From: Candidatus Binatia bacterium
GTDB lineage: Bacteria > Desulfobacterota > Binatia > Bin18
Reading direction: 5' to 3'
Assembly (NCBI GenBank): GCA_963666315.2
Contig: CAXXHG010000015.1
Span: forward strand, 223,497-287,496
Length of the DNA stretch: 64,000 bases
Part shown: positions 4,243 through 7,112 of the stretch, in pieces
How the letters are laid out: the number at the start of each line of letters is the position of its first letter
How positions within the stretch are numbered: the first letter of the stretch is position 1
Position numbers and translations under genes: made by a program
Notes under the pieces: model-generated
Told to the model about the DNA's origin: nothing
The model's input: only the letters and a program-made list of their open reading frames with translations
The model's database searches: none

Positions 4243-4383
4243 GGAGTGGGGTTGTGTATGGCTGCTGGCCGCTCTTTAGCTTGCTGGACTTGTTGGACTT
4301 GTCCGAGTCGTTTTAGTCATTTTTTCAAACTCGTGCAACTACTTCCGGACCTGCCAGCGTCATGCAAAAGCCATTCCCGCTAC

Positions 4384-4438
4384 AGATTGCTTCGCTTCGC
4401 TCGCAATGACGTGTATCGCGACTTTCCAAACACCCTCT
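4384..4438. repeat. REP-like palindrome followed by a MITE-like end
   Basis: AGATTGCTTCGCTTCGCTCGCAATGAC (4384-4410) is a hairpin of a widely seen intergenic repeat type. ACTTTCCAAACACCCTCT (4421-4438), reverse-complemented, matches the left end of the 50503-50666 element at 13/18 positions. Confidence 0.55.
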
Positions 4439-4610
4439 TGTCGGAACCCATAGAGAGAAGCGTAGATCCAAATGGGCAGGCGTTAGGCTGCGGGGTGTTA
4501 GACTGCAGAATTTGGCAGCCTACCGCTTAGAATACAGATCTTGAAGGTTTGCCGGCGAAGCTGGGAGGTCTTGTCAACAAGTGTGTAAAGAACAAAGCGG
4601 CGCAGTTGCG

Positions 4611-4648
4611 AGAAAAGAGGGAGTCCGCGTCTGGGTGACGGACTCCCT
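4611..4648 (-). terminator. Probable intrinsic terminator of the TolB-like gene
   Basis: 10-bp stem AGGGAGTCCG/CGGACTCCCT followed on the minus strand by CTTTTCT, just after the stop at 4667. Confidence 0.55.
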
Positions 4649-4666
4649 GCCCGTGCGTGCAGGTTT

Positions 4667-5129
4667 TTACAGGCTGCGCCCTCTGCTGTAACACTCCACC
4701 ATCACCCCGAGGAGCAGCCCGGCCAACAACGCGCCCACGCCATCGTGTGGAACGAGTGGTGGCGTTAAACACAAGCTGGCTGCCATCCGGACTGAATTGG
4801 GGCCTTTGGCTGCCTCCCGTGGTGGTGGTCGTGACGGGCGTGAAGATGCCGGTGGCGATGGTAAACCGCACAATCTCAGAGTTGCCATCGGCATTGGGCA
4901 CGCCGGGCAGATCAGTCCCGGTGGACCGAAACACAAGCTGGCTGCCATCCGGACTGAATTGGGGAACACGGCTGTCTCCCGTGGTGGTCGTCGTGACGGG
5001 GGTGAGCGTACACACTTGCGCCCAGGCTGCCCATGGTGGACTCCCAAAGATTCCCAGCCCGATCAACACCGCGACGAGACGGCGGCGCCACACAGAGACC
5101 GGGCATGCAAGACGAGCCACGGTTGACAT
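4667..5129 (-). pseudogene. Internally deleted secreted TolB/PD40 (WD40-like) repeat protein
   Basis: ATG at 5129 with an AAGGA RBS; signal peptide (RRRLVAVLIGLGIF...AAWAQ); only two PQFSPDGSQLVF repeats. A hydrophobic C-terminal anchor (VPHDGVGALLAGLLLGVMV...RGRSL*) lies in a different frame ending at 4667. Confidence 0.6.
4767..5005. repeat. Two 77-bp intragenic direct repeats, period 162 bp
   Basis: 4767-4843 and 4929-5005 share an identical 36-bp core AAACACAAGCTGGCTGCCATCCGGACTGAATTGGGG that encodes the PD40 repeat. Confidence 0.9.
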
Positions 5130-5410
5130 CTGTAGTCCTTTCTTTGGCCGCCGGAACCTCCCACCGCTTCGGAGCGGATCCGTTGGCCGGGTGCGGTGCA
5201 GGCGACCAGCACGCAGATGCGTCCTGCTTATATAGCTAAACAAGCCGTGCAATCAATCCCGTGTCGCCCCACGGAGGGAGGCTCTATGCGTGTCCCCGCA
5301 CCTCGCCTCCGTCAACGCCAGCAAAAAAGGCACACCATACCCCGGTCACGGAGACGGACGACCAGCGGGGGAAGATGGAGCGGACAATCTTTGGGGGTAA
5401 CTCACACTTC

Positions 5411-5516
5411 GGGGTAAAAGGGGTCAAATCTTTACTCTTGACTATTGAGGGAGCGCAGCCTCTCAATCCGGAACATGACGCGTCTCTTACGCCTGGTGGG
5501 AAAAAAAGGGACGTCC
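5411..5516 (+). repeat. Copy 1 of ~105-bp unit (putative 5' end of a RAYT/TnpA-REP-like element)
   Basis: GGGGTAAAAGGGGTCAAATCTTTACTCTTGACT...ATGACGCGTCTCTTACGCCTGG-TGGGAAAAAAAGGGACGT; ATG at 5475 gives MTRLLRL. Confidence 0.7.
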
Positions 5517-5680
5517 TTGAAGGAGCGGAATACCAGGGGCGGTCTTACGGCCCCGCCGTTGATGCCGCTTTCTCCCCAGCTCCGCGTAGGTCTCCAATAG
5601 GTGTCCTCAGCGCCTCAGCCACCGCTTCCTGAATTCTCCCCAATCCATCGTGTATGAGGAGCGTCAATACAAATCGACAA

Positions 5681-5782
5681 GGAGTAAAAGGGATCAAATC
5701 TTTACCCTTGACTTTTAGGAGCACCGTCTCTCAATCCTGAACATGACGCGCCCCTTACGCCTGGTGGGAAAAAGGGACGTTC
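5681..5782 (+). repeat. Copy 2 of ~105-bp unit (putative 5' end of a RAYT/TnpA-REP-like element)
   Basis: GGAGTAAAAGGGATCAAATCTTTACCCTTGACT...ATGACGCGCCCCTTACGCCTGG-TGGGAAAAAGGGACGT; ATG at 5743 gives MTRPLRL, resembling the M(A/T)RPLR N-terminus of REP-associated tyrosine transposases. Confidence 0.7.
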
Positions 5783-5834
5783 GTGGTTGACGAATAAAGG
5801 ACGTTGCAACCTTTTTAACCTTACGCTCGATCGC

Positions 5835-6518
5835 GCGGCTGAGTACAGCGTTCGCTTCTCAGATTATGACTTTCCTCACAGCCTCAATTAGGTTATATTA
5901 TTACCTCAATGAAATATGAGGTTCGGATCAAGAAGAAAGTAGCGCGCGGTTTGACGAAGCTACCTTCTGATGTTCAGAAACTCTTCTTCTTGCTTGTCAC
6001 GGATCTCCAGGTAGATGGCCCGATTCAGAAGAGCTGGCGGAACTTCTCGCCACTCGGGAAGGATAGCTACCACTGCCACTTGGGCTATAGATACGTGGCT
6101 TGCTGGACTTGCCGTAAGACAACTATAGCAATCGAGGTGTATTATGTTGGCTCTCGTGAAAAAGCCCCATATTGAACTCTCCATGCATGGCGAGCATGTT
6201 GAGGAACTGCTCGACTGGATCAAGAAGAAATACGACGTAGCCATCCTTACGGAAGAACCGGAGGACGAACTCATCCCGATCGAGAGTACCACGTACTGGC
6301 AAGAAATGGAGAAGAATCGCATTGGCAACCTGCTGGGCGGTGCCCGTTTGAAGGCCGGGCTAACTCAGGCTCAGCTCGCAGAAAAGCTGGGTATTCGTCA
6401 GAACATGGTCAGCGACTATGAAAGGGGCCGGCGCATCTATTCCGACGCGATGGCCAAGCGCCTTAGCAAGGCTCTTGAGGTAAAGGAAGAACATCTGAGA
6501 TATAGAAGCGAACCCGGC
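5835..6518 (+). mobile_element. Probable integron-derived gene cassette (TA pair) with truncated attC halves
   Basis: Upstream GCGGCTGAGTACAGC-GTTCGCTTCT resembles an attC 3' half. GTTCGCTTCT (5850-5859) is the exact reverse complement of AGAAGCGAAC (6504-6513) at the end of the antitoxin domain, the R'/R'' relationship expected of an integrated cassette. Confidence 0.55.
5909..6175 (+). CDS. RelE/ParE-superfamily (HigB-like) type II toxin
   Basis: 88 aa, basic; MKYEVRIKKKVARGLTKLP...YHCHL..RYVACW...IEVYYVGSREKAPY; overlaps the downstream HTH gene. Confidence 0.8.
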   Translation: MKYEVRIKKKVARGLTKLPSDVQKLFFLLVTDLQVDGPIQKSWRNFSPLGKDSYHCHLGYRYVACWTCRKTTIAIEVYYVGSREKAPY

Positions 6519-6584
6519 TCCAGGTCAGGGAAAAAAGGACATTCTCAAAGTAGCGGAATAACCGGGACAAGCTCACGACTCTGA
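6144..6584 (+). CDS. XRE-family HTH antitoxin (HigA-like)
   Basis: ARLKAGLTQAQLAEKLGIRQNMVSDYERGRR helix-turn-helix; toxin-first gene order. The last ~25 residues read through the attC remnant. Confidence 0.85.
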   Translation: MLALVKKPHIELSMHGEHVEELLDWIKKKYDVAILTEEPEDELIPIESTTYWQEMEKNRIGNLLGGARLKAGLTQAQLAEKLGIRQNMVSDYERGRRIYSDAMAKRLSKALEVKEEHLRYRSEPGSRSGKKGHSQSSGITGTSSRL

Positions 6585-6605
6585 CTCTGAGAGGAGGAAA
6601 TAGCC

Positions 6606-7034
6606 TTGTTTCAAGGAACCAGAGTAGGCTGGATGGCAGTGTGGGCGCCGGTGTTTTGCCTGGGTGGGTGTTCTCCGAATAACGGTGCTTCGCAGACCGG
6701 CGAAATACCCCCGGCTCCCGAAATGCCCGCACATTGGACAGTCACTTCCGACTTTCAAGTGCCGCTGGAGCAGGTCCAGGTAATGAGCGAGAAGCTTGGT
6801 GCGGACCTCAGCAACGTTCGAAATACCGTCTATGACGTGCAGGGGAAGCGCGTTCGGATCAATGTCATAGTTACCCCAGACCCGGGGAACGCCGAAAGGC
6901 TGATAACGAAACTCCGGTCGATGAAGGTCGAAGAAGCTCTGCTGCAAAAGGACCTGATCGTTTACGAGTTTGTAGGCAAGAATGACGTCCTCCCTCAAAT
7001 TGCAGAAGGACGCAGGCACCTCGATTCAAAGTAG
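6606..7034 (+). CDS. Hypothetical lipoprotein
   Basis: GAGGAGG RBS before a TTG start; lipobox-like FCLGGC; no family recognised. Confidence 0.65.
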   Translation: MFQGTRVGWMAVWAPVFCLGGCSPNNGASQTGEIPPAPEMPAHWTVTSDFQVPLEQVQVMSEKLGADLSNVRNTVYDVQGKRVRINVIVTPDPGNAERLITKLRSMKVEEALLQKDLIVYEFVGKNDVLPQIAEGRRHLDSK

Positions 7035-7112
7035 TCCACGTGCTTGGGGTAAGGATTGAAGATGACAGGCAGACATGGTGGACTATCTACCGCCTTGATC
7101 CAGACGCGATCA

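Follow-up and report, generated by a model that had tools for sequence, protein, structure and literature searches.

The window analysed here, a 64,000-nucleotide stretch of contig CAXXHG010000015.1 from a Candidatus Binatia bacterium (genome G000), carries 2870 bp of DNA between the core genes tgt and queA. An original prediction had taken this gap, estimated at about 2.9 kb, for a gene-shuffling array in which a HUH (Y1) enzyme or recombinase acting in trans joins captured fragments at a short motif, AAA(G)GGAC, with neither an integron integrase gene (intI) nor attC sites. Our results suggest that the interval is an ordinary integration hotspot, which holds a toxin-antitoxin (TA) pair, a lipoprotein gene and mobile-element relics joined by ordinary processes. 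We put the probability of this reading at about 75%.

The hotspot is flanked on the left by tgt, encoding queuine tRNA-ribosyltransferase (3094-4242, minus strand; Pfam TGT, E 3.1e-158), and on the right by queA (7113-8150, minus strand; Pfam Queuosine_synth, E 1.8e-132). Among the 40 relatives compared, 24 belong to the same genus, and 19 of these carry tgt and queA on one contig (G003, G009, G010, G020 and G023 were left out of the gap measurement). The gap measures 127-146 bp in six of the 19, 490 bp in one (G024) and 850-3083 bp in 12; six are thus near-empty, while 13 carry differing cargo. The cargo of the 12 large intervals includes HicA/HicB, HigB/HigA and DUF433/DUF5615 genes, a DSP-type phosphatase, a PLD/NgoFVII-like nuclease and an Mrr_cat fragment, with several fusions and truncations among them, and a HicB-like open reading frame (ORF) adjoins queA in nine of the 12 (judged by eye, with a Pfam test in G007 only). 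In all 20 aligned genomes, the variable DNA starts right upstream of a tgt leader that is conserved, ends in GCAACTAC and forms part of a promoter-like block (4243-4357, minus strand) that we delimited from the left-flank alignment and that presumably drives tgt. The queA-tgt spacer is therefore a genuine integration hotspot with TA and defence cargo, in which constant core flanks enclose accessory content that differs among the 19 relatives. The original prediction was right that alternative cargo would appear on aligning the interval across relatives, but the AAAGG(G)AC motif does not accompany it, being absent from both strands of the 19 relatives' intervals (24,285 bp in total). As far as chromosomal hotspots and defence-TA islets are described in the relevant parts of Oliveira et al. 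2017 (PMC5635113), the queA-tgt islet resembles them in its constant core pair flanking variable content, its fast turnover, its many TA and defence genes and the frequent lack of a mobility gene, and differs in its tiny size (0.1-3 kb) and in an unusual number of clipped small-repeat termini.

Much of the layout described by the original prediction was recovered. All five motif strings lie where it had placed them; the two repeat units of about 105 bp are present (5411-5514 and 5681-5780, ~104 nt, 86% identical, 270 nt apart); and the interval contains a PD40 ORF with a 162-bp internal duplication, a small ORF overlapping an HTH_3 gene, and a lipoprotein-like ORF. The notion of clipped cassettes holds for two stubs of REP-associated tyrosine transposase (RAYT) elements, for the attC sites and for the end of a DUF420 gene, a clipped piece overlooked in that first reading, but not for the toxin and lipoprotein genes, which are full length. 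In all, at least five kinds of repeat or mobile element have left broken ends in the interval. Two of the pieces recur: module A, present twice, and module B, present three times.

The closest relative is G009 (~91% identity). Its two relevant contigs (C134 and C289; L011 and L041) overlap by ~40 nt at their ends and are probably contiguous. The block at 4243-4564 is common to this genome, G009 and G024 (blastn, 84.5% identity), and homology ends at 4564. Reading on from tgt, G009 carries this block of ~320 bp, a SMODS-like nucleotidyltransferase gene with an apparent frameshift near its end and a SLATT_4 gene (E 2e-73), the two together adjoining tgt, and the first half of module A. The TA pair and module B follow (window 5835-6584, 90.5% identity; the RelE-like toxin gene contains an in-frame TAG), and then a different HTH gene, a BrnA-type module and other fragments. 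G009 also carries a second toxin-gene fragment (window 5975-6063), fused directly to the 3' end of the lipoprotein gene (6948-7030) at GGGAAGGA|CCTG. G024 (88% identity) has kept 4243-4564, followed by ~170 bp of unrelated DNA up to queA. A second local repeat seen in G009 and G024, TTAGACTGCGGGATTTGGCAG, was set aside, as it is single-copy in the present genome.

The original prediction rested on the recurrence of the motif at apparent junctions. Counting both strands, the 4.99-Mb assembly contains 646 copies of AAAGG(G)AC (0.065 per kb per strand); in the interval there are five on the plus strand, against 0.4 expected, and one on the minus strand. Only two of 9752 genome windows of 2.87 kb reach five, both at this locus, and only one of 2000 dinucleotide shuffles of the interval does so. 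However, four of the five hits, together with the string AACCGGGACA of the original prediction, sit in the three copies of module B; they are not independent, because they belong to copies of one repeat. If only two or three independent hits are counted, the shuffle tail is much thicker (at least two hits in 121 of 2000 shuffles, at least three in 16 of 2000), and the enrichment is weak. At one mismatch or fewer, the 10-mer AAAGGGACGT shows no enrichment across the window (3 found against 3.17 expected). The only other genome cluster of at least four hits (C38:3059-4982, 4 hits) lies in ordinary coding genes in unrelated contexts.

Nor does the motif mark the joints. In three of the five hits it lies 11-14 nt in from the left edge of module B, and for the other two the closest breakpoint in homology is 33 and 83 nt away. 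The homology that this genome shares with G009 begins at 5835, passes through the motif at 6531-6542 and stops only at 6584, where the two genomes diverge; it does not stop at the motif. The motif thus recurs because module B recurs, and, judged from its sequence, the motif of the original prediction is the GGGAAAAAGGGAC part of module B's end.

Module B is identified by alignment and model matches as the clipped end of a family-specific dispersed repeat. Its three window copies, all on the plus strand, are B1 (5492-5552; model R1, 61.6 bits; alignments and box search), which contains the motif at 5501-5514; the shortened B2 (5761-5829; 32.5 bits, E 4.5e-7, and alignment), with motifs at 5769-5780 and 5795-5804; and B3 (6522-6584; 59.1 bits), with motifs at 6531-6542 and 6560-6569, kept in G009 to 6584. 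These copies and the G009 copy align over ~45-65 nt. Strong matches to the model were confined to this genome and G009 among 28 genus genomes, with a partial copy on G009:C173, and a class-level search of 151 genomes added one further genome, G136. The motif string of module B is absent from 131 loci of module A's core, described below, and from 80 TA loci, except for a record that duplicates a G009 contig, and viral contigs contain no exact match to module B.

A 24-nt box within this repeat, GGACGTYCTYGAATKMGYGGRATA, is more widespread: at up to two mismatches it occurs in 30 places in 15 of 55 family genomes, with at most eight per genome and none for the reversed control. The box is often preceded by GGGGAAWAGG, a prefix that also precedes module A cores in other phyla, and in many copies a conserved stretch of ~200 nt comes next, with differing genes beyond it (L285-L314; for example L297:1489-1715). 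The gene after the box belongs to the PhyH family in this genus, including the copy of this genome at the end of contig C34 (C34:11829-11852); elsewhere in the family it is one adjoining a HEPN gene or one adjoining a PDDEXK_4 gene. One sub-type of the box extends into the 3' end of an ORF whose product has a weak DnaA_C-like helix-turn-helix (HTH; E 3e-4); a relic of it lies directly downstream of the 837-aa ORF at C43:60011-62524, putatively metH from its sequence. The box-plus-leader repeat could be a mobile leader or promoter, or the end of a non-autonomous element. On G009:C173 (L279:636-2341), the last ~105-154 codons of one ORF are present twice in direct orientation, with a HicA/HicB pair and a copy of the box in between and a PemK/MazF module alongside; the arrangement resembles an insertion that duplicated a long target.

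Several other identities of module B were tried and rejected. A MAFFT alignment had hinted at diverged RAYT coding sequence, but the RAYT profile stops at codon 6, and neither the copies of module B nor the DNA beyond them give a match even at E <=1000. An insertion into a RAYT gene with a CTTACG target duplication was suggested by eye only and found no support in a RAYT profile search of the sequence after module B. An attC site or structured RNA was dismissed for lack of a significant fold (the long form reaches -8.9 kcal/mol with almost no covariation); Rfam gave no match at E <=1 in window 4200-7200, which takes in module A as well, or in three long-B loci, and one chance-level match in five more loci. 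For a Tn3-family end, taken as a 38-bp GGGG... inverted repeat beside a DDE_Tnp_Tn3 gene, the box was sought at up to five mismatches in seven loci around the PF01526 genes of G176 and G009 and was not found there, and PF01526 is absent from the present genome. Finally, B-type loci do not encode the RAYT of module A (no tblastn match at E <=1).

The two copies of module A, A1 (5411-5491, plus strand; nhmmer E 7.4e-9) and A2 (5681-5760, plus strand; E 4.6e-9; 86% identical to A1), are separated from one another by module B1 and a spacer (5553-5680) with no match in the 40 relatives or the rest of the genome and no RAYT homology. A1 consists of a 22-nt core, a promoter-like TTGAC box, and an ATG with six codons (MTRLLR; MTRPLR in A2). 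An nhmmer profile built from 23 RAYT-element left ends aligns both copies from the core through ATG ACG CG(T/C) C(T/C)C TTA CG and ends at codon 6, which makes module A the left-end stub of an element of the repetitive extragenic palindrome (REP)/RAYT type. The original prediction had invoked an HUH enzyme, and relics of an HUH (Y1/RAYT) element do stand at two of the joints.

Exact copies of the core itself, GGRTCARATYYTTACYCTTGAC, are present in the genome collection at no fewer than 131 loci, and the titles of these mention Thermodesulfobacteriota, Nitrospirota, Actinomycetota, Aegiribacteria, PVC, Spirochaetota and Binatia, among others. Sixty-six of the 163 unique cores lie within 300 nt of an inverted partner, and a RAYT ORF starting M(T/S)RPLRIQYP...YHVTCRGN comes ~45 nt after 20 of the 163. 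One such locus encodes a 338-aa protein (L087:1504-2520; Y1_Tnp, E 3.7e-16) with cores on both sides in inverted orientation and a weak DnaA_C-like HTH tail (E 6e-4, below the cut-off). The REP-like core GGGGTCAAATCTTTACTCTTGAC (loci L044-L174) recurs near letter for letter, as inverted doublets, across metagenome-assembled genomes of many phyla; this cross-phylum identity suggests a recent and wide horizontal spread. The left flank of the core often shows short tandem duplications of the GGGGAATAG type.

In the genome studied here, module A occurs only three times in 4.99 Mb (twice at this locus and once, degenerate, on C3), and it is present in two of 28 genus genomes. The assembly (92% complete) contains no cognate intact RAYT gene; the Y1_Tnp matches on C44, C32, C40 and C28 are of other kinds, and C21 carries a homologue limited to the C-terminal half. 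The RAYT gene flanked by inverted REPs is reduced to six codons in the window and is seen intact elsewhere (L087), and the many dispersed copies of a REP/RAYT system are not found in this genome. In the parts of the REPIN/RAYT literature that bear on the point (Bertels & Rainey 2011, PMC3116915; PMC3337134; PMC5581495; PMC3733652), the likeness of module A lies in a short hairpin-forming repeat that in other genomes is found as inverted doublets (66 of 163) and, in opposite orientations, on either side of a Y1_Tnp gene. It is unlike the systems described there in that its own genome has neither an intact cognate RAYT nor genome-wide amplification, the core is near-identical across phyla, and the enzyme has a weak DnaA_C-like tail. 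A literature search for the core string gave no match. With regard to IS200/IS605-type elements, the left edge of module A recurs as a joint, and no right end, enzyme or consistent flanking target was found.

The intact heart of the islet is the TA pair. A RelE-like toxin gene of 88 aa (5909-6175, plus strand) overlaps by 32 nt an HTH_3 antitoxin gene (6144-6584, plus strand; HTH_3, E 3.8e-14), and the pair is kept together in metagenome loci. The toxin has 602 homologues, nearly all of the 120 listed being 88 aa long and carrying the JGI name RelE, and Pfam and NCBIfam models do not recognise it. Metagenome relatives confirmed for the antitoxin number 218, of which the best 80 are 64-87% identical and mostly end at codon 126; the antitoxin is conserved to about residue 124, and the tail beyond is read from an attC relic and module B. 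A small toxin-like gene followed by a gene for a DNA-binding HTH_3 protein is the composition expected of a type II TA system, and the pair probably is one. It resembles RelE/ParE-HTH (HigBA-like) pairs in its 88-aa toxin-like ORF overlapping a downstream HTH_3 gene and in the name of its homologues, and is unlike them in that its toxin falls outside Pfam and NCBIfam models and its antitoxin has an extra N-terminal part of ~60 residues.

In many homologous loci, the end of the gene overlaps a textbook attC site (GCGAAC, an imperfect hairpin with extrahelical bases, GTTCGC; -33.7 kcal/mol, z -7.05), and in many loci with a locatable toxin start GTTCGCTTC opens the cassette immediately behind the attC that precedes it. 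The window retains GTTCGCTTC (5851-5859), so that a G|TTRRRY cassette boundary is present and aligned with the homologous cassette starts. Upstream, 5830-5857 (plus strand) probably represents the 3' remnant of the preceding attC, ending in its R' box, with the cassette start G|TTCGCTTC at 5851. Downstream, comparison of folds with the homologous cassettes identified an attC R'' box (GCGAAC, 6508-6513) and part of L'' (6507-6521, plus strand), the rest of the hairpin having been lost. No attC fold exists at the end of the TA pair in the window or G009 (z +0.3 to +1.1), and a heuristic scan for R''/R' boxes and folds found no attC in window 1-12000 (one false match in a coding region) or G009, while the controls L210 and L200 were recovered. 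That the TA pair began as an integron gene cassette and has since lost its attC hairpin is well supported as an account of its origin, though not as a present mechanism, and this part of the original prediction, that one piece came from an integron array, has stood. The pair is like integron cassettes in its 64-87% identity (antitoxin) to cassettes that have GTTCGCT at one boundary and a canonical attC at the other, and in keeping the cassette start and R'' box. Unlike them, it has neither a foldable attC nor an intI, so that it would fall short even of a single attC site lacking integrase (SALIN); its upstream attC remnant is still attached, and its downstream attC is replaced by module B.

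The third intact gene encodes a small lipoprotein-like protein of 142 aa (6606-7034, plus strand; LGGC lipobox recognised by eye), followed by a queA-proximal spacer (7035-7112). Its 88 homologues are mostly 140-142 aa long and belong to no Pfam family, and none was found in the 80 cassette loci.

The left part of the interval consists of debris of other kinds. A palindromic dispersed repeat resembling a miniature inverted-repeat transposable element (MITE) or REP lies at 4374-4438 with its left half missing. It has 13 genome copies at up to four mismatches, with blastn matches on C41 (for example C41:40984-41048), C4, C38, C21, C16 and others and a read depth peak at the window copy. Its terminal inverted repeats are AGAGGGTGTTTGGAAA ... 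TTTCCAAACACCCTCT; the repeat is found also in G009, G020 and G024, and it yields an 'LLRFARND' peptide in spurious ORFs. The segment at 4565-5410 (minus strand; PD40, E 2.5e-7) is a copy of another chromosomal locus. It begins at its left edge with the terminus of a dispersed repeat (GAGGTCTTGTCAA...; 4565-4619, copies on C28, C46 and C14) and comprises a terminator-like hairpin, a frameshifted PD40 ORF of two repeats (about 4667-5126) and, at 5324-5408, the last ~28 codons of a DUF420 membrane-protein gene, recognised by their match to the 3' end of the orthologous genes on G024:C6 and G020:C167 (Pfam DUF420, E 2.8e-44 for the orthologue). On both of these contigs, a gene with the same C-terminal tail lies near the DUF420 gene. 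This tail also recurs at C46, C32, C11 and C10, and at C28:24574-24735 (L280:2180-2641) an N-terminal fragment of a Mutator-family transposase is fused to it, followed by the terminator and the GAGGTCTTGTCAA repeat. A likeness of the PD40 tail to PEP-CTERM was dropped for want of a Pfam match.

The full-length RAYT or recombinase gene that the original prediction called for was not found. Across the whole assembly (47 contigs, 4.99 Mb, 1.76% contamination), the best IntI match (TIGR02249) reached 73.4 bits against a cut-off of 265, with similar sub-threshold values in 14 control genomes; there is no Tn3 transposase (PF01526), and a scan of 56 other window ORFs revealed no domain of a recombinase or transposase. 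A probable decayed integron of this genome lies at C40:72855-74000 (L261), where a Y1_Tnp fragment containing a TGA and a small ORF pair, TA-like by eye, come after a C-terminal integron-integrase fragment (66 bits, 45 residues); G024:C32 carries a similar intI fragment (106 bits), also with a TGA.

Public sequencing runs were searched for alternative joints at the level of contigs only, and the uncovered parts in run X1 and in runs of small share carry no weight. Contigs identical to the window (100%) bridge every joint in X15 (records 10, 11, 12, 13 and 16) and, from a different study, in X17 (records 17, 20, 22 and 23). The contigs of four runs contain no joint at the motif. The sole variant joint reported leads from 6466 back to 5685 (X15) or 5415 (X18), with 22 other letters between.

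We can now weigh the alternatives. The idea that the mosaic is a chimeric repeat join in a metagenome-assembled genome draws on the 47 contigs, the 1.76% contamination and the several dispersed repeats inside the interval. Identical contigs from two studies bridge every joint, however, which argues that the mosaic is no assembly artefact even though one of the bridging runs may be the source sample, and G009 independently shows module A, the TA pair and module B in that order; we regard an artefact as barely credible. The shuffling enzyme of the original prediction, which would stitch fragments at AAA(G)GGAC in trans, fits the raw motif count, the RAYT stubs flanking two joints, the variability of the interval and the one G009 deletion joint at AAGGAC. 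Yet the motif instances are copies of one repeat and lie inside it, homology with G009 crosses the motif, the relatives' variable intervals lack it, module B is strong in only three of the 28 genus and 151 class genomes searched, the assembly offers no cognate enzyme, and the public contigs have no joint at the motif. This model is accordingly very improbable.

A decayed integron relic is less easily dismissed. Here an integrase would have placed the TA cassette, and perhaps the lipoprotein gene, either in a cassette array that later lost its intI, resembling clusters of attC sites lacking integrase (CALIN), or at a secondary site of the genome (attG route), with module B as a decayed attC. 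The CALIN category is said to come from the IntegronFinder work of Cury et al. in 2016. The cassette start and R'' box shared with true attC-bearing cassettes, the intI fragments of the lineage and the short complementary arms that flank the module B core in G009 and rep1 (partly by eye) are consistent with it, and the relevant part of Loot et al. (10.1101/2022.09.11.507474) documents SALINs and cassette insertion outside att sites. But no copy of module B folds like an attC (z -1.4 to +1.1; the consensus fold reaches only -2.7 kcal/mol), its core is the end of a dispersed repeat running ~200 nt elsewhere, integrase-mediated insertion would not bring along the attC piece present upstream, and the lipoprotein gene is absent from the cassette loci. 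We consider this explanation unlikely. Doubtful to a further degree is a reading in which the box GGACGTYCTYGAATKMGYGGRATA is the terminus of a non-autonomous cassette-carrying family (box, ~200-nt leader, passenger gene) mobilised by a RAYT-like Y1/HUH enzyme, and the window joints mark where this family and the related A-type element have inserted into integron cassettes or captured them. The passengers would be PhyH genes, HEPN-associated genes and others, and the enzyme, acting in trans, would have a DnaA_C-type HTH tail. It keeps a small probability because the left edge of module B, the AAGGAC joint of G009 and the left-edge joint of module A are not fully explained otherwise; were it true, the hotspot would be partly built by HUH-type single-strand transposition.

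Several observations weigh against an ordinary hotspot. Module B stands at four joints of unrelated pieces, and its left edge, CCWGGT, is constant whether it adjoins a RAYT stub or an attC relic; deletions by chance would not obviously lead to a constant edge. B-type repeats elsewhere precede diverse genes, near TA and defence genes, which a cassette-carrying element would also fit. In the variant form in X15 and X18, module A comes after the antitoxin gene (to 6466), so that the left edge of module A is a recurrent joint. The G009 fusion lies at a 5-nt microhomology, and its breakpoint on the lipoprotein side, at 6947, is the fifth AAAGG(G)AC hit of the window; this AAGGAC joint is treated here as one coincidence. 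With an assembly 92% complete, an enzyme could also sit in the missing part.

We nevertheless propose the following model for the ordinary hotspot. The permissive spacer between the end of queA and the tgt promoter would gain and lose horizontally acquired TA and defence genes within the genus. In this genome, the islet amounts to three intact genes (the RelE-like/HTH_3 pair and the small lipoprotein gene) amid debris: a truncated MITE, a PD40/DUF420 segmental copy, two REP/RAYT stubs, three module B ends and vestigial attC halves. The anatomy, the homologies, the variability among relatives and the lack of the enzymes in this assembly are observed; the joints most likely arose through exchange via the flanking core genes, old insertions of small elements, local duplication and deletions at microhomology, by mechanisms and in an order of events that we infer. 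The TA pair, presumably addictive, probably aids the persistence of the islet, and no dedicated shuffling enzyme would be acting at the locus now.

The genes next to the hotspot are secF, secD, yajC and tgt, all on the minus strand (gene calls and Pfam). Further along the window, dnaA (56465-57796, minus strand) lies ~50 kb off the hotspot and places the locus near the replication origin region. An amino-acid permease gene (40908-42231, minus strand) is broken up into a pair of overlapping ORFs (AA_permease_2 positions 3-83 and 116-401), probably by a frameshift or sequencing error. A tRNA-Val gene (37401-37474) is followed by a gene for a 140-aa HTH_3 protein and an unassigned 105-aa ORF, and this region (37401-38134) may be a further small insertion site.

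An integrase-free, integron-like shuffling system would have mattered, and the evidence does not support one. The locus cautions that a motif recurring at 'junctions' needs checking for copies of a single repeat. It also indicates that integron cassettes survive outside integrons after the loss of attC, where attC-based tools miss them. Two families of sequence are worth cataloguing: the REP/RAYT core that many phyla share with hardly a letter changed, and the family-specific box-plus-leader repeat that precedes diverse genes. Together, the queA-tgt interval is a clean example of how a tiny spacer between core genes has turned into a graveyard of mobile-element ends around a selfish TA pair.

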